Origin: a virus
Taxonomy: Duplodnaviria > Heunggongvirae > Uroviricota > Caudoviricetes
Reading direction: 5' to 3' (one strand)
IMG/VR virus record: IMGVR_UViG_2690316285_000010
Length of the DNA: 41,117 nt
A model generated the notes under the pieces. That model had not been told where the DNA came from. It ran no database searches and saw only the letters and a list, made by a program, of their open reading frames with translations. The stretch's first letter is position 1; each line of letters opens with the position of its first letter. Made by a program: the position numbers and the translations under genes. Shown piece by piece: positions 6,964 through 41,117 of the stretch.

Positions 6964-7167
6964 ATGGCAATTAAGCATTTTCCTGTCGTTCGTTTCACCT
7001 CCAGAGGACGTGAATACGAAGTTGACGAACGCCTGATTACCACAATCGACAAACACCGTTCAGAAAAGGATGCACATCATATCTATCTCACTGACGGCAC
7101 TTACTTCTGCGCCACCAACGTGGTGCAGGTGAATCTTATCAGACAGGTACAGGAGTCACGCAGATGA
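6964..7167 (+). CDS. hypothetical early-region protein
   Basis: ATG at 6964 preceded by AGGAGG; ORF track lists the longer 6913-7167. Confidence 0.45.
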   Translation: MAIKHFPVVRFTSRGREYEVDERLITTIDKHRSEKDAHHIYLTDGTYFCATNVVQVNLIRQVQESRR

Positions 7168-7409
7168 CCATTCTGGACTACATCGCTGCCAATCCGGGTT
7201 GTAGCAGTGGAGAAATCGCCGCAGCACTGAATACACCAACCACAACCATTAATGCGGAGCTACGCCGTCTCTGGCGCAGCGGTTTAGTCACAAGAAAAGA
7301 GCGCAAAACAGGCGGTCGCTTTTCTTATCAGGTAAACCTGATGCCGTTTGGGTGTAGCAACCCACTAACCCAGATGTTCAACCAGCTACTGAGGGAAATC
7401 AGAGCATGA
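7164..7409 (+). CDS. putative winged-helix DNA-binding protein
   Basis: 81-aa ORF; central segment (SSGEIAAALNTPTTTINAELRRLWRSGLV) looks like an HTH. Start overlaps the previous stop. Confidence 0.4.
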   Translation: MTILDYIAANPGCSSGEIAAALNTPTTTINAELRRLWRSGLVTRKERKTGGRFSYQVNLMPFGCSNPLTQMFNQLLREIRA

Positions 7410-7550
7410 GCACCTCCAACTGCCGGAAACCACGTCGGGCTTCAGCAGCTCATCCGGCAGCAAAACAAACTCCATTAATTCCTGTTCCGGGCCTTTCCTG
7501 CACCTTGCGGCGGGAGGCCTTCGCACATCTGTAACAAGAGGATTGCCGCA

Positions 7551-7922: not shown

Positions 7923-10745
7923 ATGACGGCAGAGTACATCAGGGACTGGCAACAACCGCGCCACGCAGTGGGGCGTGAAGGAACGGGGATCCCCGCTCCT
8001 GAATCCGCGCTTTCCTCCTGGCTGGATGCCCACCGGGCAGAGAACGAGCGCCGCCAGGAAATGGCTGATGCGGCGTTCTCCGCCACGCCACTGGGCAACC
8101 TGATTAATAAAAGCCTGGACGCACAGGAAAAACAGGACAAAACCATCACACTGGCAGGAGACGCCAGAAAACAGGCACGCGGCGCGGTGGATGAAGCCAT
8201 GGCCTCGCTGCGCCTGCTGCCGTCCTATCTGCGCGATCCGCTTATTCGCCACCTCTCCTTCCTGCGCAAAAAACAGGAAGCCGATCGCCGGAAAGGCAAA
8301 AAGAGCTGGCAGGCGGAACGCTATGCACGCGGAACCCTGCGCAAAATATTCGAACGTCTGGATCGCACTGACGGACACTGGCTGACACCGGGTTATCGCT
8401 CCCTTGCCGGACGTGAACGCCTGGACGATTTGCTTTACCTGCCGCAACTCAACAAACACCAGATACAGACGCTGGCCACCATGACGGCGGCGATGTTCAG
8501 CAGCACCTTCGAAAAACTCTGCGATGGTTTTGGCGCGACTGATGGCGAGCTGACCATGGATGTAACGCTGAAGGCGTATCAGATGCTGGCCCGCATGGCG
8601 TTACACTTACACGCCATGCCTCCGCATTATGACGCACTGACAACAGACAAAGACCGGAGGCACGAACCGGACACAGAACTGCTGCCGGGCGCAATCCTTC
8701 GCCTGACCTGTGCGGAATGGTGGAAACGCAAACTGTGGCTGTTACGTTGCGAGTGGAGAGAAGAACAACTTCGCGCCGCCTGTCTGGTTTCCAGAAAAAC
8801 ATCGCCCTATCTGAGCCAGGACGCGTTAAGCGAGTTTCGCGCACAGCGCGAGAAAACACGCGATTTCCTGAAAAGTTTCATGCTGGAAAATGAAGACGGG
8901 TTCACGATTGATCTCGAGACGGTGTATTACGCGGGAGTAAGTAACCCGGTTCACCGTAAGGCAGAAATGATGGCCACCATGAAGGGGCTGGAACTTCTGG
9001 CCGAAGCCCGTGGCGACAAAGCGGTGTTTCTGACTGTCACCTGCCCGTCAAAATACCACGCCACAACGGAGAACGGTCATCCGAATCCCAAATGGAACGG
9101 GGCCACAATGCGCGACTCCAGCGATTACCTGGTTAACACGTTTTTTGCGACGGTCCGCAAAAAACTGAACCGCGACGGCCTGCGCTGGTATGGCATCCGC
9201 ACGGCGGAGCCTCACCATGACGGCACCGTGCACTGGCATATGATGGTCTTTGCTCATCCGGAAGAAATCGACACCATTGTGTCCCACACCCGCGATATTG
9301 CCATTCAGGAAGATCGTCACGAGCTGGGCGATGACATAACTCCGCGCTTTAAGGCGGAGTATGTAGACGGCTCAAAAGGCACGCCAACCAGCTACATCGC
9401 CACCTACATCGGGAAAAACCTGGACAGCCGCGCCGTGGATGGCATCGACCCGAAAACGGGCAAGCCACGCGTTGACCACGAAACCGGAAAATCAATGGCC
9501 GAGAGCGTGGAACGCGCCATCGGCTGGGCGCGCCTTCACCGGGTCCGCCAGTTCCAGTTCTTTGGCATCCCCTCCCGCCAGGTATGGCGTGAACTGCGCC
9601 GCCTTGCCAGCCAGATGGCACGCAACCCGGAAGGCCCGCAACGGCTGAAGGATGACGCAATGGATGCGGTTCTTGCCGCCGCTGATGCCGGATGTTTTGC
9701 CACCTACATAGAGAAACAGGGCGGCGTACTTGTTCCACGCAAAGACTACCTGATTCGCACCGCCTACGACCTCGCCGATGAGCTGAACGATTACGGCGAA
9801 CAGAGCGTACAGATTTACGGGATCTGGTCACCACTCATCGGGGAATCCTCCCGTGTGTGCACGCATCCGGATAACTGGAAGCTGGTAAGACGCAAACCGG
9901 AAGCGGAAGACAGCGCCCGCGAAAATGGTTTTGACCTTCAGGGCGGCCCTGCCGCCCCTTGGACTCGTGGCAATAACTGTCCCCGTGTACAGGAAACGGA
10001 CAACAACGGGACAGAACAGCCGGAAGAACGGCCAGCACCGTGGCCGCAGCTCCCTGACGGCGTTGATGTGGATGAATGGATGCGCTCACTGAAACGGCAC
10101 GAACGCCGGGCGCTGATGCGTTCGCTTCGTGACAAACAGGCAAAAAACAGCAGTGATGAAATGCAGAGCTGGACACAGAGCCGCAAACAGCAGCGGCCTT
10201 TGCCTGATAACCACGAATTACTCGCTAAAGAATGGCGGGAGTCTGCTGAATCTCTCGGCCTGCATATCGGTGAACAACAGATGCAGCACCTGTTACGGGG
10301 CGGCAGTCTGTACGTTGACGGCAGCATCATTGCACCGCAGGGATTTGAAATTGTACGCAAACCGGATACCCGCCCGGACAGCCGAATCACGCAGCTCTGG
10401 CAGCGCCTGAGCCGTAATCATGGCGTAAGCAGCACGGAGATCCGCCATAACCCGGTCGCCAGCTATCTGACACAGCTGGGGGCATCAGACCCTGAAGCCG
10501 CCGCACGCCTGGCATCCACACTTCAGCAGGACCAGAACACCATGAAAACACCCGTTACCGTGCTTTCTGACATGCTGCGCGCCATCCGCGACGCAGAGCA
10601 CGCACAGAGAATCAGTGAAACCACTGAACGCGCCCGCCGCAAAGCAGACCTGCTGCGGGGTGGCCTGACCAGTGGAAACAAAAAACAGACAGAAACGGGA
10701 CTCACGAATCCCGTAAATGAGCAAAAAACGCGCAGCGATATATGA
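7923..10745 (+). CDS. A: P2 gpA-like rolling-circle replication initiator (940 aa)
   Basis: HUH-type motif (HWHMMVFAH) and catalytic Tyr region (TPTSYIATYIGKN) typical of P2 A; about 180 residues longer than P2 A as I remember it (761 aa). Confidence 0.8.
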   Translation: MTAEYIRDWQQPRHAVGREGTGIPAPESALSSWLDAHRAENERRQEMADAAFSATPLGNLINKSLDAQEKQDKTITLAGDARKQARGAVDEAMASLRLLPSYLRDPLIRHLSFLRKKQEADRRKGKKSWQAERYARGTLRKIFERLDRTDGHWLTPGYRSLAGRERLDDLLYLPQLNKHQIQTLATMTAAMFSSTFEKLCDGFGATDGELTMDVTLKAYQMLARMALHLHAMPPHYDALTTDKDRRHEPDTELLPGAILRLTCAEWWKRKLWLLRCEWREEQLRAACLVSRKTSPYLSQDALSEFRAQREKTRDFLKSFMLENEDGFTIDLETVYYAGVSNPVHRKAEMMATMKGLELLAEARGDKAVFLTVTCPSKYHATTENGHPNPKWNGATMRDSSDYLVNTFFATVRKKLNRDGLRWYGIRTAEPHHDGTVHWHMMVFAHPEEIDTIVSHTRDIAIQEDRHELGDDITPRFKAEYVDGSKGTPTSYIATYIGKNLDSRAVDGIDPKTGKPRVDHETGKSMAESVERAIGWARLHRVRQFQFFGIPSRQVWRELRRLASQMARNPEGPQRLKDDAMDAVLAAADAGCFATYIEKQGGVLVPRKDYLIRTAYDLADELNDYGEQSVQIYGIWSPLIGESSRVCTHPDNWKLVRRKPEAEDSARENGFDLQGGPAAPWTRGNNCPRVQETDNNGTEQPEERPAPWPQLPDGVDVDEWMRSLKRHERRALMRSLRDKQAKNSSDEMQSWTQSRKQQRPLPDNHELLAKEWRESAESLGLHIGEQQMQHLLRGGSLYVDGSIIAPQGFEIVRKPDTRPDSRITQLWQRLSRNHGVSSTEIRHNPVASYLTQLGASDPEAAARLASTLQQDQNTMKTPVTVLSDMLRAIRDAEHAQRISETTERARRKADLLRGGLTSGNKKQTETGLTNPVNEQKTRSDI

Positions 10746-27978: not shown

Positions 27979-28030
27979 AGTAATATGCAGGCGGCGCAGT
28001 GCGTCGCCTCTGACTGAAAGGAGTTTCCTG

Positions 28031-28396
28031 ATGAAAGAGACGAAAAACATCGATACCGAAAACACGGTCGTTGCTGACACTGTGAAAGAAACCAGTGAGC
28101 GTGGCGTAAAACTTACCCAACCAATTGAGCGAGGCGGCGAAAAAATCACGTATGTGGAGATCACCGGGGCTATTGAGCAGGCTGGATCTCTGCGAGATTT
28201 GTCGCTGTCTGATGTGCTGAATTTGAAAGCGGAATCCATGTTTACGCTGCTGTCACGCGTGACATCACCGCGACTGGATGAAGTGACGATCAAAAAAATG
28301 GCATCCCGTGACTTTATTCAGTTATGTGTGGTTGCCGTAAATTTTTTGAGCGGTGCGGACTCTGGCGAGAAGAACGAACAGGCGACGGAAGCCTGA
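28031..28396 (+). CDS. E: tail assembly chaperone (P2 gpE-like)
   Basis: AAGGAG RBS; 121 aa; followed by overlapping -1 frame extension. Confidence 0.8.
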   Translation: MKETKNIDTENTVVADTVKETSERGVKLTQPIERGGEKITYVEITGAIEQAGSLRDLSLSDVLNLKAESMFTLLSRVTSPRLDEVTIKKMASRDFIQLCVVAVNFLSGADSGEKNEQATEA

Positions 28397-28560
28397 TCAC
28401 GGTTGTGTGCTTTGAGCACATAGAAGACTTTGTGGCGGATATTGCCGCCATTTTTAACTGGTCGCCCGCCGAAATCTTCATGATGACGCCCGGCGAAGTG
28501 GTTAGCTGGCGTGAGCGGGCGGCACTTCGCAGCGGGAATGCAGACAATGAAGACTCTTGA
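28031..28560 (+). CDS. tail assembly chaperone E+E' (-1 programmed frameshift product)
   Basis: Slippery heptamer T_TTT_TTG at 28342-28348 in the E frame; the -1 frame is open from there to 28560, as for P2 E/E'. Confidence 0.65.
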
Positions 28561-31135
28561 TATCCGGGTCGCTTTCAGCGCCGTTGACAGGCTGACCCGG
28601 CCTGCCGAAAACGCCCGCCGCCTGATGGGGCAGTTTGGTGACTCCATCCAGCGAACGCAGGGGGCGATCAAAAATCTCGAGCGTCAGGCGCGTTCATTTG
28701 AGCGCGCCCGTGACGCTGTCAGTAAAGCGGATGCGGGCATCGTGAAAGCACGACGCCAGCTTAACGCCCTTAATCAGTTACAACGCACGGGTACAGTGCT
28801 CAGCGAAAAACAACAAAAGCTGATGCAGCAGTTAAGCACCCGGCTTGAACGCCTGAATGAATCGCGCACACGGGAAATTCAGAAAATGCGGGAACTTGGC
28901 GGAGAGCTGAAACGCCACGGCATTTCCCTGACAGGCAGCGATAACACCATCCAGCAGGCCATCAGACGCACCGGACAATACAACAACCAGCTTGAACGCG
29001 AACGGCGGGCGCTTGCGCGTGTAACGCAGGCGCGTGAGCGGTATTCACGCGCGCAGGAAACAGCGGGAAAACTGAAAACAGGTGGTGCGCTGGCAACAGG
29101 TGCGGCGGCAGCGGGCGGCTATGCTGCCGGGCGTTTTTTGCAGCCCGCTATCGGGTTCGGGAAAGAGATGTCCCGTGTTCAGGCACTGACGCGAATCGAT
29201 AAAAACAGCCCGCAGTTTAAGGCGCTGCGTGAGCAGGCGTTAAAACTTGGCTCTGAAACGCAGTTCACCGCAGGCGATGCCGCCAGTGGACAGGCATTTC
29301 TTGCAATGGCTGGTTTCACACCGCAGGCCATTCAGGCTGCGCTTCCCGGCGTGCTGAGCATGGCAACGGCTGGCGGTATGGACCTCGGCGAGACGGCGGA
29401 TATTGGTTCCAATATCCTGACGCAGTTCGGCCTCTCTGCTGACCAGATGGACCGGGTCGGTGACACACTTACCGCAGCGTTTACCCGTACCAACACTGAC
29501 CTTCGCGCACTGGGCGAAACCATGAAATATGCAGGTCCGGTGGCGGGTAAGCTGGGAATATCGCTGGAGCAGGCCGCAGCGATGGCGGGCGTGCTGGCGA
29601 AGATGGGTATCAGGGGGAGTGATGCAGGTACAGCGTTGCGTAAAAGCCTGGCCAATCTGTCATCACCGCCAAAGGCAGCGGCAGAAGCACTGAAAGAGCT
29701 GGGGGTGTCAGTTGCTGACGCCAAAGGCAAAATGCGCCCGATGGAGAATGTGCTGGCCGATCTCTATAAAGCCACCCGCAAATACGGGGAGGTTGACCGG
29801 GTATCGTTCTTTAAGGACATTGCCGGAGAAGAGGCTTTCACATCATTTATGGGCCTCGTTGATGCGGCAGGTGACGGCTTCTTAGCCAAACTGAGAAAAG
29901 AACTTGAAGGCGCGCGCGGTGAGGCAGAACGCACGGCAAAGGTTATGGCCAATAACCTTGATGGCAACCTGAAATCACTCGGCAGTGCATGGGAAGGTCT
30001 GCGTATTCGCATCAGTGATCTGGTTGACGGTCCGCTGCGTTCTGTCACGCAGTGGCTCACGCGGGTTGTCTCAAAGGTGACGGCGCTGGCGCAGGCCCAC
30101 CCGGCACTGACGCGCCAGTTACTGATAGCGGGAGGCGCACTGCTGGCGACAACAGCAACGGTTGGTTCGTTGTCTCTGGTTATTGGGGTGCTTCACGGGA
30201 AGCTGGCTACGTTGCGTCTCGGTTTTTCTCTCCTGACCGAATCAATGAATGTTGTCAGGGTTCTGCCTGCATTATGGGGAATGGTGACGGGTTCCGTTTC
30301 TTTACTTGGTGGCGCTATCGGGGCGCTGTTCAGTCCGGTTAGTCTTATCGTGGCTGCGCTTGCCGGAGCTGCCGTTCTTATCTGGAAATACTGGGATCCC
30401 ATCAGGGCATTTTTTGCCGGGGTGTTCAGCGGGATTATGGAAAGGCTGACCCCGTTGCGCGAAACCTTTGAACGGTTTGGCCCTGTTTTTGATGTCGTGC
30501 GCGATGGGATTATTCAGGTCTTTAACTGGTTTAAATCGCTGCTGTCACCGATGGAGTCCAGCAAGGAAACGCTGGATAAATGTGCCAGTGCTGGCGAGAT
30601 ATTCGGTAACGTTCTTGGCGGTGCGTTACAACTTGTTCTGACACCTGCAAAAATGCTACTGGATACGCTGGCGTGGATACTTGAAAAACTTGGCGTCCTT
30701 CCGGATGAAGCGGAAAGGGCGCGCAAGAAAATCGAAGACGCACAGCGTGCGGCCATTCTTCAGGACAAGGTTGCCTTGCTTCAGGGGGACCTGGCGAAAA
30801 TCAATCCGCCGAAGCCTGTGGAAAATGGCAATGGCACCGGAGGTGATAAACCCAAAGACAACAAACCGCTCACAGACAGCAATACCGGGACGCTACGCAG
30901 ACTCAGCAAAATTGCTGATAACACAGGTAAGCTGGTTGATGAGACGAAAAAACGCATTGGCCCCGGCGATATTGTCTTTAAGAACCTGCCCCGCGCACTT
31001 GCTGTTCGTGGGGAGTGGCAGGAGCGGAAGATTGCGCAGGTCAGTAAGCCTGCCCCCGCAATTAATATCACACCCGTGGTCCCGGCTCCGCTGCCTCCGG
31101 CGCTGGTCCCTGTTGTTGCGGCCAGCTCCCGCCCG
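28511..31135 (+). CDS. T: tail tape measure protein (P2 gpT-like), 3' end hidden in N-run
   Basis: Long alpha-helical Ala/Gly-rich protein with hydrophobic central segments; 875 codons before N-run 31136-31361. Start codon uncertain (GTG 28511 or ATG 28538/28547). Confidence 0.8.
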
Positions 31136-31363
31136 NNNNNNNNNNNNNNNNNNNNNNNNNNNNNNNNNNNNNNNNNNNNNNNNNNNNNNNNNNNNNNNNN
31201 NNNNNNNNNNNNNNNNNNNNNNNNNNNNNNNNNNNNNNNNNNNNNNNNNNNNNNNNNNNNNNNNNNNNNNNNNNNNNNNNNNNNNNNNNNNNNNNNNNNN
31301 NNNNNNNNNNNNNNNNNNNNNNNNNNNNNNNNNNNNNNNNNNNNNNNNNNNNNNNNNNNNNTC

Positions 31364-31858
31364 ATGGCCATGATGATGATCTACGGCATGTTTGTTTTTG
31401 AGCTGCGTACATTGCCGCATCAGCAGTTACAGCAAAACAAAAGCTGGCGGCATGTGAAAAATGAACGCGTTAACCGTTCGGCAAGCTGGCAGTATATCGG
31501 TGCAGGTGATGAGCGCATCGTTCTTTCTGGTGTGCTTTATCCTGAAATTACAGGTGGCGAAGTGTCGCTGTCGCTGCTGACCACGCAGGCGTATACAGGA
31601 CGACCCTGGCCTCTGATTGATGGCGTCGGGCAGATTTACGGCATGTATGTCCTGACCGAAACGAATACGACCCGCTCCGAGTTTGATCGCTACGGTAAGG
31701 CGAAAAAGATAGAATTTTCACTGACTCTTGAACGCTGTGATGAGGATTTGCGGGAGCGCCTGCAATCCTCATCGTTCAGCGATATGCTGTCCGGCTTCAA
31801 AGATAAGGTAACATCATCCCTTAACAGCGCGGCCAGTTCAGTTAAAGGGTTGTTCTGA
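31364..31858 (+). CDS. U: tail protein (P2 gpU-like)
   Basis: MAMMMIYGMFVFELRTLPHQQLQQNKSWRH... vs P2 U MMMVLGLFVFMLQTVPYQELQYQRNWRH...; begins immediately after the N-run. The ORF track fuses T, the gap and U into one 1115-aa ORF. Confidence 0.8.
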   Translation: MAMMMIYGMFVFELRTLPHQQLQQNKSWRHVKNERVNRSASWQYIGAGDERIVLSGVLYPEITGGEVSLSLLTTQAYTGRPWPLIDGVGQIYGMYVLTETNTTRSEFDRYGKAKKIEFSLTLERCDEDLRERLQSSSFSDMLSGFKDKVTSSLNSAASSVKGLF

Positions 31859-31871
31859 TTTAACACAAAAA

Positions 31872-31904
31872 CCGCTAATGGTCAGATTAGCGGTTATTTT
31901 GTTT
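31872..31904. terminator. bidirectional rho-independent terminator between U and the invertase gene
   Basis: CCGCTAAT-ggtcag-ATTAGCGG hairpin with T-tracts on both sides (TTATTTTGTTT on plus, TTTTTGTGTTA on minus). Confidence 0.6.
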
Positions 31905-32481
31905 CCTGACTCTTCTCTATTGTTCCGATTGATTCTCCTGCGGGGTGGTAACGATAAATCGTCGATATACCAATGCCGTAAATTATTGCCAGTTGTTTTC
32001 TGTCGTGCCCGTTTTTGATCAGCCTTGCTATTTGCTCATGCTGTTCTTTTGTCAGCTTCGGTCGACGTCCGCCTGTGCGCCCCCGTGCGCGTGCTGCCGC
32101 CAGTCCGGCCAGTGTACGTTCAACAATTAATTCACGTTCCATTTCAGCCAGGGCACCCATCACGTGGAAGAAAAAACGCCCCATTGGAGAAGATGTATCT
32201 ATGCTGTCGGTCAGACTGCGAAAATTAATTCCTCGCTCCCGTAGTTCCCCGACGAGAGAAATCAGATGTTTCATGCTTCGCCCGAGGCGATCCAGTTTCC
32301 AGACAACCAGCGTGTCACCTTTTTGAAGGCGCTTTAAAGCGCGTTTTAATCCCGGTCGGTCTGTCTTTGTCCCGCTTAATTTATCTTCAAATATTTGTTC
32401 ACATCCTGCACAAACAAGAGCGTTTCGTTGCAGGTCTGTATTCTGGTCATTTGTTGATACCCTTACATAGCCAATCAGCAC
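31894..32481 (-). CDS. pin: serine DNA invertase (Pin/Gin/Cin/Min family)
   Basis: [36 protein letters not shown]... is close to e14 Pin through the catalytic domain (Ser in VRVSTNDQ), C-terminal HTH diverged. Start placed at GTG 32479-32481; ORF track uses TTG at 32499. Confidence 0.88.
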   Translation of the reverse strand: MLIGYVRVSTNDQNTDLQRNALVCAGCEQIFEDKLSGTKTDRPGLKRALKRLQKGDTLVVWKLDRLGRSMKHLISLVGELRERGINFRSLTDSIDTSSPMGRFFFHVMGALAEMERELIVERTLAGLAAARARGRTGGRRPKLTKEQHEQIARLIKNGHDRKQLAIIYGIGISTIYRYHPAGESIGTIEKSQETK

Positions 32482-32535
32482 GCTGAATCTCCCGTCCAAA
32501 AGCGCAAATCATGCCATGCAGGCCGGAAACGGCCA

Positions 32536-32561
32536 TTATCTAAAACCTCGGTTTACAGGAA
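32536..32561. other. invertase crossover site (gix/pix-like), site 1
   Basis: TTATCTAAAACC-TC-GGTTTACAGGAA: two 12-bp inverted half-sites around a 2-bp core, near-identical to the Mu gix site as I remember it; 55 bp from the invertase start. Confidence 0.8.
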
Positions 32562-32670
32562 ACGGTAAACAAGGCTGGTAACGCCGTGCAAAAAAATGGC
32601 GATACGTTGTCCGGTGGACTTACTTTTGAAAACGACTCAATCCTTGCCTGGATTCGAAANNNNNNNNNNN

Positions 32671-33260
32671 TCTTCTATTGTACGACGGTGTTCGTCAAAA
32701 GCTAATTGTCGCCAGGGACTTTCGAATGAGTATTTGCTGAGCCAGCGTCGGTGTGCAGGGCCCCAATCTGCTCGCCCGACATAATGGACCCCATGAACCA
32801 GAAGAAACGATTTCAGACGTTGCCTTGCATGCCGTAAATCATCGCGGGCAGATGCCCATGCCCGGGCCAAATCCCGGAATGCCTCATCTTCAATGCCGGG
32901 TACGTAGACAGCAGAAAGATCTCCTGCACGCAGTGAACGCACAAGTCTGATGGCATCACGGCGATCGGTTTTAACCCGCTCCCCCGGTTTTTTCGGGATA
33001 AGTGAGGGGGCGCAGACCATGCAGTCAAAACCGGATTTCACCAGCCGACGATAAAGTCCATAACCACAGGGCCCCGCTTCATAAACGATACTGACCTGCG
33101 ATGACTTTGACCTGAGACGTTTACAAAGATTCTGAATATCAGTAGGTGATGTGCCAATTTTACCCATCAGTTCAACAGGTTCTGAATTGATAGCATAAGC
33201 GACAGTAATCGATTCTTTGTGAACATCTAACCCGACGTACAATGTGTTATTGTTGTTCAT
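32671..33260 (-). mobile_element. 5' part of an IS110-family (DEDD) transposase gene, cut off by N-run 32660-32670
   Basis: N-terminus MNNNNTLYVGLDVHKESITVAYA... is typical of IS110-family transposases (and related Piv-type invertases). Only about 196 codons precede the gap. Confidence 0.6.
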
Positions 33261-33386
33261 GCTGGCCTCCGTGGTGGAAATACCGGGGTGTAGCAACAGC
33301 TCACCCATGCGGCTCTGACAACGATGTTAACCCGCGTTAAATATCCCACGTTGGCCAGCATCTGTCTCACGGAAAGTCATACTGCC

Positions 33387-33656
33387 TTACATTGTGTCTG
33401 GTTCTTCCGGCCACTCAATATCAGGTGCAGTTGATGTATCAACACGGTTCAGCAACACCCGATACTTCTTCCAGGCTTCCAGCAACGAGTTTTCTTCCTC
33501 CGTTGCGATCTCCAGATCTACAGCATCCTGAAGTGGCGCAATATGCTCACTGAATTCCTGGATGTAGAACTGTGTGGTGACGGTCTTCCAGCCATTCGGC
33601 TCCTGCTGTATCGAAGCATACCAGGCTATTTCAATATCGCTATGCTGCGGCAGCAT
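33387..33656 (-). CDS. short tail-fibre-assembly-like protein (C-terminal domain only)
   Basis: 89-aa ORF ending ...[28 protein letters not shown], the conserved C-terminus of Tfa proteins; N-terminal half unlike the other Tfa copies here. Confidence 0.5.
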
Positions 33657-33712
33657 TTAACCCCTTGTAATTCATCGCCATAATTGATTTAATTCACAAA
33701 TAAAACTATAAT

Positions 33713-34381
33713 ATGGTGAAATTAATGAAAAAAAACACAGATGATGGGGCTAAAATTTACACACCACTTACCCTAAAGCTTTATGACTGGTGGGTTTTGG
33801 GAGTATCAAATCGGCTTGCATGGGGATGTCCTACAAAGGAACACCTTCTTCCACACTTTCTGGAACATTTAGGTAACAACCATCTGGATATTGGTGTTGG
33901 AACTGGGTTTTACCTTACTCACGTACCTGAGAGTAGTCTGATATCTTTAATGGATTTGAACGAAGCTAGCCTGAACGCGGCATCTACAAGGGCTGGGGAA
34001 TCAAAAATTAAACATAAAATTAGCCATGATGTTTTTGAACCTTATCCCGCGGCGTTACATGGTCAATTTGATTCCATTTCCATGTTTTACCTTCTTCACT
34101 GCCTGCCTGGAAATATATCTACAAAAAGCTGTGTAATACGCAATGCGGCGCAGGCCTTAACTGATGATGGAACTCTATACGGAGCCACAATTCTTGGCGA
34201 TGGAGTTGTGCACAATAGCTTCGGTCAAAAACTGATGCGCATTTACAATCAGAAAGGCATCTTTTCAAACACAAAAGATTCCGAAGAAGGCTTAACACAT
34301 ATACTCTCAGAGCATTTCGAGAATGTTAAAACCAAGGTTCAAGGTACTGTAGTAATGTTTTCCGCTTCAGGGAAAAAATAG
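33713..34381 (+). CDS. class I SAM-dependent methyltransferase (substrate unknown)
   Basis: 222-aa ORF with motif I LDIGVGTGF; AT-rich coding sequence; followed by a hairpin CCGCAGCACGT...ACGTGCTGCGG at 34390-34422. Confidence 0.6.
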   Translation: MVKLMKKNTDDGAKIYTPLTLKLYDWWVLGVSNRLAWGCPTKEHLLPHFLEHLGNNHLDIGVGTGFYLTHVPESSLISLMDLNEASLNAASTRAGESKIKHKISHDVFEPYPAALHGQFDSISMFYLLHCLPGNISTKSCVIRNAAQALTDDGTLYGATILGDGVVHNSFGQKLMRIYNQKGIFSNTKDSEEGLTHILSEHFENVKTKVQGTVVMFSASGKK

Positions 34382-34579
34382 CATCCAACCGCAGCACGTT
34401 CTTGCTTAAGACGTGCTGCGGCATAATCCCAATGATTACTCCCTGACAGGGTTCGTAGGCCACTCAATATCAGGTGCAGTTGATGTATCAACACGGTTCA
34501 GCAACACCCGATACTTTTTCTAGGCTTCCACCACCAGCACGACAAGATGCCGCATACAGTGACCCAGTCAGTCCAGTTT

Positions 34580-34780
34580 TCAGACAACCAGTGCGTCACC
34601 TTTTTGAAGGCGCTTTAAAGCACGTTTTAATCCAGGTCGGCCTGTCCTTGTTCCGCTTAATTTATCTTCAAATATTTGTTCATATCCTGCACAAACAAGA
34701 GCGTTTCGTTGCAGGTCTGTATTCTGGTCATTTGTTGATACCCTTACATAGCCAATCAGCACGCTGAATCTCCCGTCCAA
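34580..34780 (-). pseudogene. diverged 5' fragment of a second invertase gene (about 66 codons)
   Basis: Translates to [19 protein letters not shown]...LQKGDALVV*; differs from the intact pin at several nucleotides (C->Y, K->R, D->G, T->A), so it is not an assembly duplicate. Confidence 0.6.
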
Positions 34781-34816
34781 AAGCGCAAATCATGCCATGC
34801 AGGCCAGAAACCGCCA

Positions 34817-34832
34817 TTATCTAAAACCTCGG
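34817..34832. other. crossover site 2 (left half visible; rest in N-run)
   Basis: TTATCTAAAACCTCGG then N-run 34833-34923; sequence after the gap resumes CGGTTTACGAGAAC..., a variant right half. Confidence 0.5.
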
Positions 34833-34923
34833 NNNNNNNNNNNNNNNNNNNNNNNNNNNNNNNNNNNNNNNNNNNNNNNNNNNNNNNNNNNNNNNNNNNN
34901 NNNNNNNNNNNNNNNNNNNNNNN

Positions 34924-35897
34924 CGGTTTACGAGAACTCGGCACAAGCGGGGAGAAAATACCGTTACTCAGTACAGCGAATACCTGGACTAATCGACAAA
35001 CATTCAGCGGTGGCCTTTCTGGTGAACTATCCGGCAATGCTTCTACAGCTNNNNNNNNNNNNNNNNNNNNNNNNNNNNNNNNNNNNNNNNNNNNNNNNNN
35101 NNNNNNNNNNNNNNNNNNNNNNNNNNNNNNNNNNNNNNNNNNNNNNNNNNNNNNNNNNNNNNNNNNNNNNNNNNNNNNNNNNNNGTGCGTTTGCCTTAGG
35201 GAAAACAGGAAGCACCGTTGCGAATGATAAAGCAGTTGGATGGAACTGGAGTAGCGGAGCCTATAACGCAACTATTAGTGGTGCATCAACGTTAATTATT
35301 CATTTTTATAATTAATCCGAAACTGAGCTGCAGGACAACTTCCTTCTCCCATATAAAAATGGCGGTATTTTTTATCGTTCAGCCCGTGATGGTTATGGTT
35401 TTGAAGCCGACTGGTCCGAATTTTACACCACCAGAAAACCTTCAGCAGGAGATGTTGGTGCACTGCCGTTATCTGGTGGTCAACTGAATGGTGCACTGGG
35501 TATCGGAACATCCAGTGCTCTTGGCGGTAATTCGATTGTATTGGGTGATAATGACACGGGCTTTAAACAAAAAGGCGATGGTAATCTGGATGTTTATGCT
35601 AATAACGTCCATGTTATGCGCTTTGTCTCCGGAAGCATTCAAAGTAATAAAACCATAAATATTACGGGACGTGTTAATCCCTCGGATTACGGTAACTTTG
35701 ATTCCCGCTATGTGAGAGATGTCAGACTTGGCACACGAGTTGTTTAGACCATGAAGAAAGGCGTGATGTATGAAAAATCAGGCCATGTAATCACGGGGCT
35801 TGGTATTATCGGTGAAGTCGATGGTGATGATCCGGCAGTATTCAGACCAATACAAAAGTTAATTAACGGAACATGGTATAACGTATCGCAGGTATAA
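34924..35897 (+). pseudogene. tail fibre variable C-terminal domain (P2 H-like type), disrupted
   Basis: Encodes ...TWTNRQTFSGGLSGELSGNASTA, (gap 35051-35184), ...[21 protein letters not shown]..., ...[18 protein letters not shown]...[18 protein letters not shown]. Interrupted by a 41-bp inversion (35311-35351) and an in-frame TAG at 35745. Confidence 0.6.
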
Positions 35898-35899
35898 TC

Positions 35900-36131
35900 A
35901 TGCAGCATTTAAAAAACATTGTCGCAGGTAATCCAAAAACCGTTGAACAATACCAGCTAACAAAGAATTTTGATGTTATCTGGTTATGGTCCGAAGATGG
36001 AAAAAATTGGCATGAGGAATTAAAAAACTTTCAGGAGGATACAATAAAACTGGCTTACACAGTTGAGGGAATAATTATTGCTATAGACAAGGATGTATCA
36101 GCAATTAATCCAGAAGGTTTAAGTGTCGTTG
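35900..36131 (+). CDS. tail fibre assembly protein, N-terminal part (P2 gpG-like), cut off by N-run
   Basis: [37 protein letters not shown]... matches the Tfa/P2 G N-terminus; ends at N-run 36132-36142. Confidence 0.65.
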
Positions 36132-36142
36132 NNNNNNNNNNN

Positions 36143-36450
36143 CCGGTCGGTCTGTCTTTGTCCCGCTTAATTTATCTTCAAATATTTGTTCACATCCTGC
36201 ACAAACAAGAGCGTTTCGTTGCAGGTCTGTATTCTGGTCATTTGTTGATACCCTTACATAGCCAATCAGCACGCTGAATCTCCCGTCCAAAAGCGCAAAT
36301 CATGCCATGCAGGCCGGAAACGGCCATTATCTAAAACCTCGGTTTACAGGAAACGGTAAACAAGGCTGGTAACGCCGTGCAAAAAAATGGCGATACGTTG
36401 TCCGGTGGACTTACTTTTGAAAACGACTCAATCCTTGCCTGGATTCGAAA
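36143..36450. repeat. exact 308-bp copy of 32352-32659 (invertase 5' end plus crossover site 3 at 36327-36352)
   Basis: Base-for-base identical to 32352-32659 by eye; each copy has an N-run on one side. Confidence 0.8.
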
Positions 36451-37363
36451 TACTGACTGGGCAAAGATTGGGTTTAAAAATAATTCGGATGCAGACACCG
36501 ATTCCTACATGTGGTTTGAAACAGGCAACAACGGCAATGAATATTTCAAATGGAGACACCGCATCATTGGCACCCGGCCTAAAGACCTGATGAATCTTAA
36601 ATGGAATGCTTTGTCTGTTCTTGTTGAAGCCCTTTTCAGCAGTGAAGTGAAAATATCGACAGTCAATGCACTGAGGATATTTAATTCATCTTTTGGTGCC
36701 ATTTTTCGTCGTTCTGAAGAATGCCTGCATATCATCCCTACACGAGAGAATGAAGGGGAAAATGGTAATATAGGGCCACTACGCCCCTTTACGCTTAATC
36801 TCAGAACTGGCCGGATAAGCATGGGGCATGGTCTTGATGTTACAGGGGATATATTTGCAAACCGTTTTGCAATTAACAGTAGTACCGGCATGTGGATTCA
36901 TATGCGTGACCAGAATGTTATTTTGGGACGTAATGCGGTATCCACTGATGGTGCTCAGGCTTTGCTCCGTCAGGACCATGCCGACCGCAAATTTATGATT
37001 GGCGGTCTGGGAAATAAGCAATTTGGCATCTACATGATTAATAACTCAAGGACAGCCAATGGCACCGATGGTCAGGCGTACATGGATAATAACGGGAACT
37101 GGCTTTGCGGCTCGCAAGTTATTCCCGGCAACTATGGCAATTTTGATTCCAGATATGTGAAAGATGTTCGACTTGGTTCACAGCAATATTATGGAGTGAA
37201 CAACTGGCAAACATGGAATTTTCAGTGCCCGTCAGGCTATGTACTGACGGGGATTAACGTACAGGATACCGGAAAAAACTCTGCCGATAATATTGCAGGC
37301 GTTCATTACAGGCCAGTGCAAAAGTATATAAATGGCACTTGGTATAATGTGGCGAGTATTTAA
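36377..37363 (+). CDS. tail fibre variable C-terminal domain, cassette A
   Basis: Frame is open from within the crossover site ([19 protein letters not shown]...) to ...[17 protein letters not shown], the conserved tail-fibre tip end; would be expressed only when fused to the constant part. Confidence 0.7.
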
Positions 37364-37364
37364 T

Positions 37365-37892
37365 ATGATGCACTTAAAGAACATAAAAGCAGGTAATGCT
37401 AAAACAGTGGAGCAGTATGAGTTAACAAAGAAGCACGGAGTCATCTGGCTTTACTCTGAGGACGGAAAAAACTGGTATGAGGAAGTGAAGAACTTTCAGC
37501 CAGACACAATAAAGATTGTTTACGATGCAAATAATATTATTGTCGCCATCACCAAAGATGCCTCCACGCTTAACCCTGAAGGTTATAGCGTCGTTGAGGT
37601 TCCTGATATTACAGCTAATCGTCGTGCTGATGATTCCGGTAAGTGGATGTTTAAGGACGGAGCTGTGGTTAAACGGATTTATACGGCTGACGAACAGCAA
37701 CAACAGGCCGAATCACAAAAGGCCGCATTGCTTTCCGAAGCTGAATCAGTCATCCAGCCGCTGGAACGCGCTGTCAGGCTGAATATGGCAACAGACGAGG
37801 AACGCACACGACTGGAAGCATGGGAACGCTACAGTGTTCTGGTCAGCCGTGTGGATACGGCAAAGCCAGAATGGCCACAAAAGCCTGAGTAA
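37365..37892 (+). CDS. tail fibre assembly protein, cassette A
   Basis: [11 protein letters not shown]... to ...[26 protein letters not shown]; start 2 nt after the variable-domain stop. Confidence 0.8.
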
Positions 37893-37912
37893 AAATTAAG
37901 GCCCGATANNNN

Positions 37913-37938
37913 NNNNNNNNNACCTCGGTTTACAGGAA
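37913..37938. other. crossover site 4 (left 9 bp inside N-run 37909-37921)
   Basis: Visible part ACCTCGGTTTACAGGAA identical to sites 1/3, followed by the same [15 protein letters not shown] junction frame. Confidence 0.6.
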
Positions 37939-37983
37939 ACGGTAAACAAGGCTGGTAACGCCGTTCAGCGTTCCGGCGATAAA

Positions 37984-38879
37984 ATGACCGGAGAACTGAA
38001 AATTGGCACGGTGAATGCGCTGCGAATTTTCAATGATACCTTCGGTCTAATTTTCCGTCGTTCAGAAGATTTTCTTCATTTCATTCCGACGGCTGAAGGA
38101 CAAGGCGAAAACGGTAATATCGGCCCATTAAGGCCATTCGCTATAAATCTGAGAACAGGTGCTATATCTGTCAGCCACGGGGCCAAAATTAAAGGAGGTC
38201 TAGCTATTGGAGCTACTGATAACGCACTGGGTGAAAACTCCATTGTTCTGGGAGATAACGACACCGGATTTAGGCAAGATGGAGATGGTATTATTAGCTT
38301 CTATTCAAATGGTTCGCGCATCGGACATATTGATGAGTTAGGATTACATCTTTATAAAGATNNNNNNNNNNNNNNNNNNNNNNNNNNNNNNNNNNNNNNN
38401 NNNNNNNNNNNNNNNNNNNNNNNNNNNNNNNNNNNNNNNNNNNNNNNNNNNNNNNNNNNNNNNNNNNNNNNNNNNNNNNNNNNNNNNNNNNNNNNNNNNN
38501 NNNNNNNNNNNNNNNNNNNNNNNNNNNNNNNNNNNNNNNNNNNNNNNNNNNNNNNNNNNNNNNNNNNNNNNNNNNNNNNNNNNTGGTGCGCAAGTTGCGT
38601 CTAGTGGCGATATTTATGGTTCAGTGTGGGAAAACAACTGGTTAAGCACATGGCTGCATAATCATGTCGTTCGGGATATTCGTCTTGGCAGCATTGAATA
38701 TAAAAACGTATNNNNNNNNNNNNNNNNNNNNNNNNNGCGACTACGGCTTTGGCGATGCGTCAGGTTATGTTTTAACAGCCGCAATTAACAGCAATGCGGA
38801 TGATATTGTCGACACTGTTGCCAGAAGGCCAATTCAGAAATTGATTGGGGGAATATGGTACAACGTGGGGAGTGTTTAA
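37984..38879 (+). CDS. tail fibre variable C-terminal domain, cassette B (two internal N-runs)
   Basis: ...[22 protein letters not shown]... to ...[18 protein letters not shown]; N-runs 38362-38583 and 38712-38736 fall inside. Confidence 0.65.
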
Positions 38880-38880
38880 G

Positions 38881-39408
38881 ATGATGCACCTGAAAAATAT
38901 TAAGGCCGGGAATCCGAAAACACCGGAACAATACCAGCTAACTAAAAAAGCGGGCGTGGTATGGCTCTTTTGCGAAGATGGCAAAAACTGGTATGAGGAA
39001 CAAAAGAATTTTCAGCCAGACACCATAAAAATTGCTTACGATGAGAACAACATCATCGTTGCTGTCAGTAAAGACGTTTCAACTATTAATCCTGAAGGGC
39101 TAAGCATAGTTGAAGTTCCTGATATTACGGCAAATCGTCACGCAGACAATAACGGAAAATGGATGTTTCTGGATGGTAAAGTAGTAAAGAGGGAATATAC
39201 AGAACAGGAACTGCAACAACAGGCCGAATCACAAAAGGCCGCATTGCTTTCCGAAGCTGAATCAGTCATCCAGCCGCTGGAACGCGCTGTCAGGCTGAAT
39301 ATGGCAACAGACGAGGAACGCACACGACTGGAAGCATGGGAACGCTACAGTGTTCTGGTCAGCCGTGTGGATACGGCAAATCCTGAATGGCCACAAAAGC
39401 CTGAATAA
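38881..39408 (+). CDS. tail fibre assembly protein, cassette B
   Basis: [30 protein letters not shown]... full-length Tfa, same C-terminal half as cassette A. Confidence 0.8.
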
Positions 39409-39440
39409 AAATTAAGGCCCGATAGCGGGCCTTCTCTCAT
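39409..39440. terminator. bidirectional terminator between convergent Tfa genes
   Basis: GGCCCG-atag-CGGGCC hairpin at 39419-39434 with T-rich flanks on both strands; the same hairpin half precedes N-run 37909. Confidence 0.55.
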
Positions 39441-40146
39441 TCTGGTTGTTCGGGAAACGTTACTGGCAGGCTGGAGGTGTCTGTGGATTCAACCTTCTGC
39501 GCATAGAGCATCCACTCGGTTAATTTTTGTTTATTCTCGTCGGAAATAATGCCCAGCCGTAGCTGTGAGTCCCATAGCTGGGTTTTATCCCTGACGAGCT
39601 GTAGCAGGCTTTGCTTTTCATTTTCCGCTTGTTGCCTCTGCTCTTCCCCGGTATAAGTTCGCTTTATCACTACGCCATCTTTGAACATCCATTTACCTGA
39701 AATATCAGCCCGGCGATTTGCTGTAATATCAGGCAACTCAACGACACTNNNNNNNNNNNNNNNNNNNNNNNNNNNNNNNNNNNNNNNNNNNNNNNNNNNN
39801 NNNNNNNNNNNTTGCTCTTCCTCGGTATAAGTTCGCTTTATCACCGCACCATCTTTGAACATCCAGTTGCCCGAAATATCAGCCCGGCGATTTGCTGTAA
39901 TATCAGGAACCTCAACGACGCTTGCGCCTTCCGGATTAATTGCTGAAACATCCTTTTCAATACAAATAATAACGCCGTTGTGGTCATAGACCATTTTCAA
40001 CGTATCAGGCTGAAAGTTCTTTTGTTCCTCATACCAGTTTTTCCCATCCTCTGTATAAAGCTATTTGATGTTAAATTGTTTCGTTAGCTGGTATTGCTCT
40101 TTTGTTTCAGGATTACCAGCAGAAATGTTTTTTAAGTGCATCATCG
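39437..40146 (-). pseudogene. tail fibre assembly protein, cassette C (in-frame TAG and N-run)
   Basis: Minus-strand reading [36 protein letters not shown]...: TAG where the other copies have TGG (plus 40061-40063). N-run 39749-39811 is flanked by about 90% identical 100-bp sequences. Confidence 0.6.
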
Positions 40147-41117
40147 TTAAATACTCCCCGCGTTATACCACGTCCCATTAATGCAATACTGAATTGGCCT
40201 TGCCTGAGTTGTATCAATTAGTTCATCTCTGTTTGAGTTAACGGAACCGGTAACAACATAACCTGACCTGTCAGACCATCCGGGACCATTCCATGTCTGA
40301 ACAGATAACAGACCACCAAGGCGAATACCTGTAATAAACCTTGAGTTACATTCTGCCTGCGTATATGCACCAACATCTCCCGCAGAGGGTTTGCGGGTTG
40401 TGGTGTAAAACTCTGACCAGTCAGCTTCAAAGCCATAACCATCACGCGCTGAACGATAAAAAATACCGCCGTTCCTGTAATTCACGCGGAACTGTACAGC
40501 AGGGCAGCTCCCCGTATTCATATTGAAGTGGAGGATTAATGTCGATGCGCCACCAATGTTTGCGTTATAGACCCCGCTATTCCAGTTCCAGCCAACAGCT
40601 TTATCATTTCCGACAGTGCTTCCTGTTTGCCCTAAAGCAAATGCAGGTTGTTGATTTTTCGTGTTGTAGTCTCGTCGCCAGCCAGGAGCGTAAGCATCAC
40701 CATGATTAATATAAGTGAATTGAGCGTTAGTAATTCCGCCACCGCTGGACGTGCTCGGCGTGGTAACGCGTATGGTCATTGCGCCGCGAGTGCCAATAAC
40801 TTCCACCACAGCACCTGCAAGACAAATATTTCCGCAACCTGTATCTGTAATGACCTTATTATTTGCATAAGCCCATGAGCCTTTGCACATCCAGTAAGGA
40901 TGGTTAAATGCTCCCTGACTCTCCAGCCACGAAATAAATTGCGCGGTTGTCCAGACCTGACTATCGCCACCAATATTCAGCCATGAGCTATATGCGCGGC
41001 AGGCACCAATATTTTTGGTGAAGGTATCTTTCCCCGGAATATCTGCGCCGTTCTGGTTTTTCTGTAATGCGCCAGAAGCCTGATTTACCGTTTCCTGTAA
41101 ACCGAGGTATTCGATAA
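40147..41117 (-). CDS. tail fibre variable C-terminal domain, cassette C (5' end at window edge)
   Basis: Minus-strand frame open from crossover site 5 ([18 protein letters not shown]...) to ...[17 protein letters not shown]; ORF track lists 40147-40890 from an internal Met. Confidence 0.7.
41092..41117. other. crossover site 5, inverted relative to sites 1/3/4
   Basis: Plus strand TTCCTGTAAACCGAGGTATTCGATAA = reverse complement of TTATCGAATACC-TC-GGTTTACAGGAA. Confidence 0.75.

Follow-up and report, generated by a model that had tools for sequence, protein, structure and literature searches.

The presence of an AT-rich methyltransferase gene in a phage tail-fibre region, bracketed by two pieces of the same tail-fibre assembly gene (tfa), raises the questions of what the enzyme acts on, how the bracket arose and whether the gene belongs where it is found. 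The window, by which the whole 41,117-nt stretch of DNA analysed is meant, is a tailed-phage record (Caudoviricetes; IMG/VR IMGVR_UViG_2690316285_000010) and consists of a gapped short-read scaffold with 13 runs of N; the piece that carries the island, 32671-34832, has gaps at both ends. The features of this piece are as follows.

32671-33390, minus strand: partial ISSso6 (IS110-family) element, with a DEDD_Tnp_IS110 domain
33387-33656, minus strand: tfaX-like remnant, an 89-aa ORF matching Caudo_TAP, phrog_2341 and phrog_3893
33409-33484, minus strand: left repeat copy, coding for the conserved tfa 3' end, from sequence comparison
33684-33712, plus strand: predicted sigma-70-type promoter, TTGATT-17-TATAAT, from a consensus scan (10/12 matches)
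33713-34381, plus strand: ybcY-type class I SAM-dependent methyltransferase gene, a 222-aa ORF
34389-34421, no strand assigned: strong hairpin, folding energy -23.9 kcal/mol, z -5.2
34458-34533, minus strand: right repeat copy, a decayed tfa 3' end interrupted in frame by TAG and cut off at 34533
34580-34780, minus strand: serine invertase gene of Pin/Gin type, truncated to its N-terminal 60-66 aa, from its ORF and identity
34817-34832, no strand assigned: gix/pix-type crossover site, left half only (TTATCTAAAACCTCGG), interrupted by a gap in the scaffold

The first-pass annotation of this DNA had described a class I SAM-dependent methyltransferase gene at 33713-34381 with a directly repeated tfa 3' end on either side, and both parts of that description hold up, with Pfam matches for the gene and a 76-nt direct repeat at 96% identity (33409-33484 and 34458-34533, refined from 33408-33479 and 34455-34520). 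The chance expectation of such a match in 41 kb is estimated at about 1e-30. The left copy lies within the 89-aa remnant, of which residues 31-86 align to positions 75-130 of the 131-position Caudo_TAP profile (E 2e-26), while phrog_2341 matches it at full length and phrog_3893 matches residues 3-37. The same ORF is annotated as a partial tail fibre assembly protein in three other loci (L001, L012 and L013), and the alignments indicate that a tail-fibre assembly gene contributed just the C-terminal ~59 residues (about 33387-33566). The right copy is decayed, as had been proposed: an in-frame TAG stands at the position of a Trp in the left copy, and the fragment is joined upstream to the truncated invertase gene. 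The methyltransferase gene opposes the two tfa remnants, which share one direction, and an identical layout is annotated in loci L001, L013 and L094.

This arrangement has a close counterpart in K-12. Positions 33410-34533 (1124 nt) are 97.2% identical to the K-12 DLP12 region (L013), where a frameshifted methyltransferase gene lies between two tfa pseudogenes with appY-ompT adjacent, and the gene is 97-99% identical to E. coli ybcY copies. Judged by its sequence, the island is one more copy of a cassette known from DLP12-type lambda-like prophages, tfaD'-ybcY-tfaX', which is already annotated and not new. Gene order, orientation and flanking tfa remnants are as in the K-12 cassette (b0561-b0563), whereas several details differ. 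The ybcY-type gene is intact here and frameshifted in K-12, the left neighbour is ISSso6 here and appY-ompT in K-12, and the right tfa remnant, which in K-12 comprises at least 155 nt of the repeat and abuts a terminase fragment, is here 76 nt long and fused to the truncated invertase gene.

Of 5426 complete E. coli genomes, 3832 (~70%) contain the gene at ≥95% identity and 29% lack it; the left tfa junction is kept in 3445 genomes and the right one in 3074, most copies retaining both, and island and repeats are contiguous in thousands of complete genomes. The cassette is among the commonest prophage remnants in E. coli. The active lambda-like phages 2G7b, ev243, PhiR26_1, Kati and Turner carry the gene just behind their tail-fibre genes, copies in Shigella and enteroinvasive E. 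coli adjoin the effector gene ipaH, and DLP12 remnants without any tail genes keep it intact in the order argU-int'-tfa'-methyltransferase-ompT. Its K-12 frameshift means that the gene is dispensable in the laboratory and, because that copy is frameshifted, the function of ybcY could not emerge from work on K-12.

As scaffolded, the island sits inside a P2-like prophage. Its true locus is most probably another one, since the sequence comparisons place the island piece in a lambda-like prophage, at its end adjoining the trp operon. The very same 308-nt sequence (308/308) precedes the gap at 32660 and follows the gap at 36142, and 31800-32659 and 36143-37908 are contiguous in a P2-like prophage that is without the island (L003). 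In the complete genome CP029794.1 (L115), a lambda-like prophage ends beside trpA, and this end is collinear with 33166-34832 (99.9%) and also with 34924-35050 (100%) and 35185-36131 (97.5%). The crossover site that is cut by the gap resumes with its second half at 34924, and the two halves are contiguous at the same locus. Lambda-like loci by trp (L001 and L108-L115) share the order J-lom-stf-tfa...invertase remnant-methyltransferase-tfa'. The position of the island in the window is probably an assembly artefact, with two prophages interleaved at invertase crossover sites. A separate suggestion, that the piece 32671-34832 is itself a chimera with its left part from an ipaH copy and its right part from an invertase-flanked copy, was rejected because CP029794.1 is contiguous over 33166-34832 with 2 mismatches.

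Alternatively, the island may truly have been inserted into the P2-like invertible tail-fibre region through recombination between prophages at invertase or crossover-site sequences. The scaffold as given places it there, and both prophages carry crossover sites and invertase 5' ends that are 95% identical, with an intact invertase present. An insertion of this kind is nevertheless unlikely, as the exact 308-nt duplication adjoins both 11-N gaps, codon 25 of a tail-fibre gene is followed, across the left join, by the interior of an IS element, scaffold pieces B, C and D as well as 37922-39748 line up with one lambda-like prophage locus in complete genomes, and none of the complete E. coli genomes covers at least 80% of 28000-41117 in one place. 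The first-pass annotation had itself considered a different genomic locus and a match to a well-characterised housekeeping methyltransferase as findings that would tell against it; the former most probably applies, in the shape of the lambda-like prophage by trp, while no match of the latter kind was obtained.

The two tfa fragments suggest a simple origin for the bracket. The conserved tfa 3' end is a recognised boundary for the swapping of phage tail-fibre modules. With the cassette placed immediately after a tfa gene and itself bearing a shortened tfa 3' end, the repeats would have been left by a single crossover or unequal exchange inside this conserved stretch. The right copy varies in length (76 nt here, ~98 nt in phage 2G7b and at least 155 nt in K-12 tfaD), is a full-length 194-aa tfa in pF138-4 and is absent where ipaH adjoins the hairpin, and the sequence outside either repeat changes from context to context. 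In loci L108-L114, 12 of the ~20 differences from the window fall in 33447-33545, within the left tfa remnant, and this clustering indicates a gene-conversion tract. In the present copy, a later deletion would have joined the right tfa remnant to the truncated invertase gene, and ISSso6 would have inserted at the left-hand tfa stop codon. The partial ISSso6 is 99-100% identical to other ISSso6 copies and its end coincides with that stop codon; exact protein look-ups recovered the ISSso6/tfa junction in complete genomes L103-L107 and L115, and an exact-match search of species-representative genomes returned none.

The proximity of recombination functions could also be taken to mean that the repeats mark the limits of an autonomous cassette mobilised by a site-specific recombinase (e.g. 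the adjacent Pin-type invertase), or that the island lies in an invertible segment. A crossover site and a truncated invertase gene do stand 50-300 nt rightward of the island. The invertase remnant, fused with the right tfa remnant, shares 95.8% identity with the 5' portion of an intact invertase gene located at 31894-32499; it is annotated as a recombinase family protein in L001, and the exact 60-aa product adjoins the methyltransferase gene in complete genomes. Moreover, the system to the right of the island in its true locus is of the same kind as the Gin/Cin/Pin invertible segments (Mu G, P1 C and e14 P), with crossover sites, alternative fibre tips with tfa genes and an invertase gene. 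Unlike in those systems, the adjacent invertase amounts to only 60 aa and the island lies outside the invertible segment, that is, outside the crossover-site pair and past the invertase remnant. Since the repeats are direct and made of coding tfa sequence instead of gix/pix-type sites, the conserved core encodes no recombinase and the invertase remnant is adjacent in only 409 of ~3800 carrier genomes, a mobile or invertible unit is scarcely credible, and exchange within the tfa 3' end is the reading followed here.

The methyltransferase gene itself stands apart from its surroundings in composition. Its ORF has a GC content of 0.407 (GC3 0.354) against 0.518 for the window, so that the island is AT-rich as first described, and with flanks and window at 0.49-0.52 its composition is unlike that of the neighbouring phage genes. 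The spacer that carries the predicted promoter is lower still, at 0.25. This promoter lies between the divergent tfa remnant and methyltransferase gene, on the strand opposite to the tfa genes. The corresponding ybcY/tfaX spacer of K-12 contains a constitutive RpoD promoter for ybcY, defined by genomic SELEX with RpoD holoenzyme, and an H-NS site is also marked there (Shimada et al. 2014, PMC3946193). The hexamers read TTGATT-17-TATAAC in K-12 and TTGATT-17-TATAAT in the window, and by analogy the element at 33684-33712 may work as a promoter in the present strain, where expression and H-NS silencing of the gene would be expected to follow the K-12 pattern. Its -10 element stops immediately upstream of the annotated ATG at 33713. 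The true start is likely the ATG at 33725, where homologues begin, giving a protein of 218 aa; either a nearly leaderless mRNA is translated from this codon or the gene has a different promoter. At the other end, the hairpin begins 8 nt past the stop codon, between the convergent methyltransferase gene and right tfa copy. A terminator scan of the methyltransferase (plus) strand found no canonical T-tract behind it and called no intrinsic terminator. The hairpin end, 34421, is the limit of homology with L012 and L100-L107, and the hairpin forms the right edge of the conserved core in copies neighbouring ipaH.

What the enzyme may be is best approached through its fold and relatives. The ORF matches Pfam Methyltransf_12, Methyltransf_23, Methyltransf_25 and Methyltransf_11, all above the curated cut-offs (37.6 bits against 30 for Methyltransf_12), and PHROG 2132 covers residues 5-222 (E 8e-157). 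Motif I (GxGxG), the acidic residue that ends strand 2 and motifs III and IV are all present, and LDIGVGTG, DLN, HDV and FDS are invariant in an alignment of 36 homologues, as is an N-terminal lid, YDWWVL..SN..AW. Structure prediction from the single sequence reached a pLDDT of 32.7, and the 36-sequence alignment was used instead; the resulting AF2 model has a pLDDT of 91.7 and shows the seven-stranded sheet of class I (Rossmann-like) methyltransferases. Its best structural matches are PmtA (8ys9), JHAMT (7ec0), UbiG/Coq5-type enzymes, phosphoethanolamine N-methyltransferases and MM_2633 (3dtn), all at 12-21% identity. PmtA, which shares overall fold and size with the predicted enzyme, is the closest solved structure by Foldseek E-value, while profile-to-PDB sequence matches are to JHAMT and UbiG only. 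The model supports a ~218-aa cytoplasmic class I SAM methyltransferase of the small-molecule or lipid type, which is an assignment to a class and not to a function.

In 270 species genomes across the Gammaproteobacteria, homologues with 50-68% identity occur as solitary genes on the chromosome, including non-phage settings in Enterobacter, Yersinia, Erwinia and Pseudomonas, and the family comprises 408 clusters at E<=1e-30. Comparison with the Citrobacter, Enterobacter, Klebsiella and Proteus homologues gives dN/dS values of 0.09-0.13, which at about 0.1 point to strong purifying selection on the gene. In Pseudomonas, the methyltransferase forms a syntenic trio with a crotonase-like gene and a gene for a small protein, and CorA accompanies them. 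Hydrolase or esterase genes also occur near the homologue in Enterobacter, Erwinia, Yersinia and phage 2G7b, in differing families and at differing distances. Searches of NCBIfam, PADLOC and PDB sequences gave no family assignment; the NCBIfam scores were 16.9 against a cut-off of 175 for RquA, 17.4 against 180 for CpaM and 15.6 bits against 390 (E 0.01) for PmtA NF045882, the last confined to the SAM-binding core. In the alignment, the invariant lid YDWWVL..SN..AW.C.T defines a separate family, for which no characterised member was found. The literature on ybcY yielded no functional study or protein assay. In line with the first-pass annotation, which named no target, no substrate was found, and none of the neighbours of the 72 homologues examined for a pathway clue is kept across genera.

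The candidate classes of target can be weighed all the same. Orphan Dam/Dcm-type enzymes are frequent in phages, and the first-pass annotation had accordingly allowed that the enzyme could modify DNA and shield phage or host from restriction; like the phage orphan DNA methyltransferases (Dam, Dcm-like and N4C), it is phage-borne and SAM-dependent. It differs from these enzymes in catalytic motif, domain architecture, fold neighbours and genomic behaviour. The Pfam search gave no N6_Mtase, N6_N4_Mtase, MethyltransfD12 or DNA_methylase match, a regular-expression scan of the protein found neither [DNS]PP[YFW] nor PCQ, a target-recognition domain cannot fit in 218 aa, no DNA-methylase fold was matched and the sole PADLOC match was insignificant (E 0.003, 14 bits). 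In addition, the chromosomal relatives are solitary, without restriction partners, and the gene has its own promoter and is transcribed against the late operon. No test applied identified the ybcY-type enzyme as a DNA methylase, and an anti-restriction role is extremely unlikely.

A virion protein, either the tail fibre or its chaperone, would make a target that explains the placement, given that the gene is adjacent to tfa and stf in every phage context. The gene, however, is read from the other strand and has a sigma-70 promoter to itself, it is intact in DLP12 remnants stripped of all tail genes, and it has homologues in the non-phage chromosomes named above, so that a virion target is very unlikely. 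A tRNA or rRNA methyltransferase is improbable, since the protein lacks an RNA-binding extension, its sequence-profile matches are to JHAMT and UbiG and to no RNA enzymes, its NCBIfam matches are limited to weak ones with CpaM, RquA and PmtA, and the gene is accessory in E. coli, where K-12 carries it frameshifted and more than a quarter of genomes do without it. The activity that we infer is methylation, within the lysogen, of a metabolite or lipid head-group common in bacteria. A more specific proposal is that the enzyme is a PmtA-like lipid or head-group N-methyltransferase, or a metabolite or toxin modifier, delivered by the prophage, silenced by H-NS and retained for envelope change or detoxification during colonisation. 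It draws on the Foldseek rank of PmtA, the strong purifying selection and the adjacency to ipaH, none of which is a test of it, and is a speculative and quite improbable reading.

A gene of this kind need not be out of place behind tail-fibre genes. The distal end just past the tail-fibre genes is the classical position of accessory cargo (morons), and the earlier remark that cargo in a tail-fibre region is unusual does not stand, the cassette being very common. Morons of lambda-like phages (e.g. bor, lom, ompT and ipaH) are found in the b region or where the late operon ends, and have their own promoter, atypical GC and transcription independent of the late operon. The ybcY cassette resembles them further in its position at a module boundary and in its variable neighbours, which are themselves cargo (ompT, appY, ipaH, DinI-like or alpha/beta-hydrolase genes), and differs from them in that its hairpin lacks the T-tract of a canonical intrinsic terminator. 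The ybcY-type gene would be such a moron, AT-rich, with its own sigma-70 promoter and opposing the tail operon, and its product would act on a metabolite or lipid head-group and have no virion role. Taken as a whole, it is quite likely that the island is a DLP12-type ybcY cassette, a moron with a small-molecule or lipid methyltransferase, misplaced by scaffolding from a lambda-like prophage by trp.

The cassette is real but ordinary, annotated in K-12 and present in most E. coli genomes. For the assembly of phage genomes, it illustrates that repeats of invertase and crossover-site sequence let short-read scaffolds interleave two prophages, which produces apparent cargo in the wrong place. For phage mosaicism, the tfa 3' end would exemplify a short conserved coding stretch that serves as a recombination handle. 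The ybcY gene appears to be an intact, selected enzyme gene, and its family, a distinct one, numbers at least 408 clusters (50% identity) in the Gammaproteobacteria. If the PmtA-like, colonisation-related reading were true, it would give a function to a gene carried by ~70% of E. coli genomes.

The methyltransferase gene lies between two 3' ends of the tail-fibre assembly gene (tfa), as the first-pass annotation had recognised, and the layout is as follows.

33713-34381, plus strand: methyltransferase ORF, 222 aa, matching Pfam Methyltransf_12, _23, _25 and _11 above the curated cut-offs
33387-33656, minus strand: Tfa-like ORF, 89 aa, residues 31-86 matching the C-terminal end of Caudo_TAP (E 2e-26)
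33409-33484 and 34458-34533: two direct repeat copies of 76 nt, 96% identical (repeat finder)
34389-34421: strong hairpin (-23.9 kcal/mol, z -5.2)

The repeats, previously put at about 60-70 bp, are real, and the AT-richness ascribed to the island also holds, with a GC content of 0.407 in the ORF (GC3 0.354) and 0.25 in the 56-nt spacer 5' of the gene, compared to 0.518 in the window. Translated in the tfa frame, the left repeat copy is a coding tfa 3' end, while the same translation identifies the right copy as a dead remnant. A 45-aa ORF (34326-34463, minus strand) that overlaps the 3' end of the methyltransferase gene and the hairpin is labelled 'hypothetical protein' in some reference genomes and, oddly, 'nucleocapsid protein' in others, and is probably a spurious call.

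The island is the already annotated ybcY cassette, which is very common in E. coli. When 5426 complete E. coli genomes were searched by megablast with the gene alone, 3832 of them, K-12 among these, had it at ≥95% identity. In K-12, its counterpart in the cryptic prophage DLP12 is a methyltransferase pseudogene with a frameshift. One tail-fibre assembly pseudogene lies on each side of it, with appY and ompT adjacent, and the three are tfaD, ybcY and tfaX in the established K-12 nomenclature; 33410-34533 is 97.2% identical to this region. Among the 3798 genomes with ≥80% of the gene, 3445 retain the left junction, where the tfa remnant and the spacer lead into the gene start, and 3074 the right junction, where the hairpin and the tfa repeat follow the gene end. 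The tfa bracket is the rule, and no peculiarity of the window. Furthermore, in active lambda-like phages such as 2G7b, ev243, PhiR26_1, PhiR29/30, Kati and Turner, the cassette directly follows the tail-fibre genes, and further cargo and the integrase gene lie downstream of it. Given this shared position and the prevalence of the gene, the earlier view that cargo inside a tail-fibre region is unusual is not supported, and the position is ordinary for prophage cargo.

The cassette was also sampled in other settings: with a full-length tfa to its right, behind ydfK and an invertase gene that is intact, in a DLP12 remnant strongly reduced to the order argU-int'-tfa'-methyltransferase-ompT, and in a prophage remnant of the Shigella/EIEC type that has no right repeat and where the hairpin borders the effector gene ipaH. 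In two reduced DLP12 remnants (E. coli KKo009 and 21KM1392), the interval from argU to ybcH retains no more than part of an integrase gene, a fragment of tfa, an intact methyltransferase gene and ompT, so that the methyltransferase outlasts nearly all phage genes. In the Shigella/EIEC-type genomes, ipaH, a type III effector gene (LRR and NEL E3 ligase), replaces the right tfa repeat (7998-9640 in locus L012, about 7317-8960 in L100-L107), and homology with the window ends at 34421.

The conserved core runs from the hairpin through the methyltransferase gene and the spacer to the left tfa remnant. Whichever tfa 3' end precedes this core forms the right copy, whose length depends on the context, and the DNA outside either repeat varies.

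Right tfa copy by context
pF138-4: full tfa gene
K-12: at least 155 nt of homology
phage 2G7b: about 98 nt
window: 76 nt, fused to a truncated invertase
loci with ipaH abutting the hairpin: none

The bracket is very unlikely to mark the ends of an autonomous element: the core contains no recombinase gene, the repeats consist of tfa coding sequence, and the nearby invertible segment does not include the island. It would instead have been left by one crossover, or an unequal exchange, within the conserved 3' end of tfa, with local deletions afterwards. In the loci beside trp (L108-L114), 12 of about 20 differences from the window are substitutions clustered in the roughly 100 nt at 33447-33545, inside the left tfa remnant, and the remaining island differs by roughly 0.6%; this cluster resembles a tract that gene conversion copied from another tfa allele.

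The window contains 13 N runs, several of which begin exactly at the invertase crossover-site core AACCTCGG. Within 31800-41117 they lie at 32660-32670, 34833-34923, 35051-35184, 36132-36142, 37909-37921, 38362-38583, 38712-38736 and 39749-39811. The gap at 32660 is preceded, and the gap ending at 36142 followed, by the same 308 nt (308/308 identical), a duplicate that brackets the inserted pieces. The complete P2-like prophage L003 lacks the island, and the sequences that flank these gaps in the window are directly contiguous there. 33166-34832, 34924-35050 and 35185-36131 are collinear with one locus in the complete genome CP029794.1 (99.9%, 100% and 97.5% identity), where a lambda-like prophage ends next to the trp operon. 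Its order is lom, stf, invertible fibre-tip/tfa cassettes, truncated invertase, methyltransferase, tfa remnant, ISSso6 and IS1 debris, Rha/Ash and trpA; 37922-38361 and 38584-39748 derive from the same locus.

31800-32659, 36143-37908 and 39813-41117: assigned to the P2-like prophage
32671-36131 and 37922-39748: assigned to the lambda-like prophage
31894-32499, minus strand: intact Pin/Gin-type invertase gene, 201 aa, with Resolvase and HTH_7 domains
34580-34780, minus strand: truncated invertase copy of the lambda-like prophage
36105-36290, minus strand: third apparent invertase fragment, a scaffold duplicate
32671-33390, minus strand: ISSso6 element (IS110-family, RNA-guided), junction at 33386-33391

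The duplication, the contiguity in the P2-like prophage and the collinearity with CP029794.1 together make it very likely that the scaffold interleaves the invertible tail-fibre regions of two prophages. These share 95% identical invertase 5' ends and crossover sites, and a real rearrangement between them appears improbable. Since contigs break at the crossover sites of both loci, the single intact invertase may flip both segments in trans in the sequenced population. The end of ISSso6, on CTTACA, overlaps the TAA stop codon of the tfa remnant, and this junction recurs at two different prophage loci of complete genomes (with ipaH beside btsS, and with an invertase remnant beside trp), which reflects either two insertions at the same target or a cassette copied with its IS. 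ISSso6, together with the exact products of 89 and 60 aa, suggests a genome of the Shigella type. Elsewhere, the 1115-aa ORF at 28511-31858 (plus strand) is an artefact of reading the 226-N gap at 31136-31361 as X, which fuses the tape-measure gene to the next tail gene, a P2 gpU-like one; L003 has two distinct genes here, of 935 and 162 aa.

On the strand of the methyltransferase gene, a scan for promoter consensus elements places TTGATT-17-TATAAT at 33684-33712. A constitutive RpoD promoter of ybcY, TTGATT-17-TATAAC, has been listed in the divergent ybcY/tfaX spacer, which is also marked as an H-NS site (Shimada et al. 2014, PMC3946193). An AT-rich, H-NS-bound and independently transcribed gene at a module boundary fits the usual picture of phage accessory cargo. 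As the -10 element ends immediately 5' of the annotated ATG 33713, translation probably starts from ATG 33725, on a very short leader or from a weaker upstream promoter-like site (33657-33684). Most homologues start at the position of ATG 33725, as does the model of PHROG 2132, a matching family without assigned function (E 8e-157). No T-tract follows the hairpin on the methyltransferase strand.

The gene is under purifying selection: dN/dS is 0.11-0.12 when it is compared with the most divergent E. coli copies, and 0.09-0.13 in comparisons with the homologues of Citrobacter, Enterobacter, Klebsiella and Proteus. The family comprises 408 clusters (50% identity) at E<=1e-30, and relatives are encoded in 270 species-representative genomes of Enterobacterales, Pasteurellaceae, Pseudomonas, Xanthomonadales and Oxalobacteraceae. 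Outside Escherichia/Shigella, the gene is solitary and chromosomal in non-phage surroundings, and no neighbour conserved across genera was found. In Pseudomonas (L056-L091, about 5660-7470 in each), the homologue belongs to a conserved trio, between a ~100-aa protein ending 6-30 nt upstream and a ~230-aa crotonase/enoyl-CoA-hydratase-like gene starting 120-260 nt downstream, followed by a CorA-like transporter; this synteny is confined to one genus and is therefore a weak functional lead.

The motifs LDIGVGTG (motif I), DLN, HDV and FDS, together with an N-terminal stretch, YDWWVL..SN..AW.C.T, are invariant across 36 aligned homologues. An AlphaFold2 model from this alignment (pLDDT 91.7, pTM 0.88) is closest to solved small-molecule or lipid methyltransferases and a few RNA methyltransferases, at 12-21% identity. 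Foldseek matches include PmtA (8ys9, E 1.3e-11), JHAMT, phosphoethanolamine methyltransferases, NodS, polyketide C-methyltransferases and SgvM, and there is no DNA methyltransferase among these closest structures. When the PDB was searched with a sequence profile, JHAMT (E 6e-6) and UbiG were the only matches, both confined to the SAM-binding core, and NCBIfam gave only sub-threshold similarity to CpaM, RquA and PmtA. The protein lacks (D/N/S)PP(Y/F/W) and PCQ motifs, and PADLOC returned no significant match, so the proposed DNA modification finds no support. Our reading is that the enzyme would be a cytoplasmic methyltransferase of a common metabolite or lipid head-group, which is a class assignment only. 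The examined literature that mentions ybcY contains no functional study of it, and in one report a ybcY mutant did not differ from the control in an Hha toxicity assay. The enzyme is conserved and the gene intact in the window, and the K-12 copy is broken.
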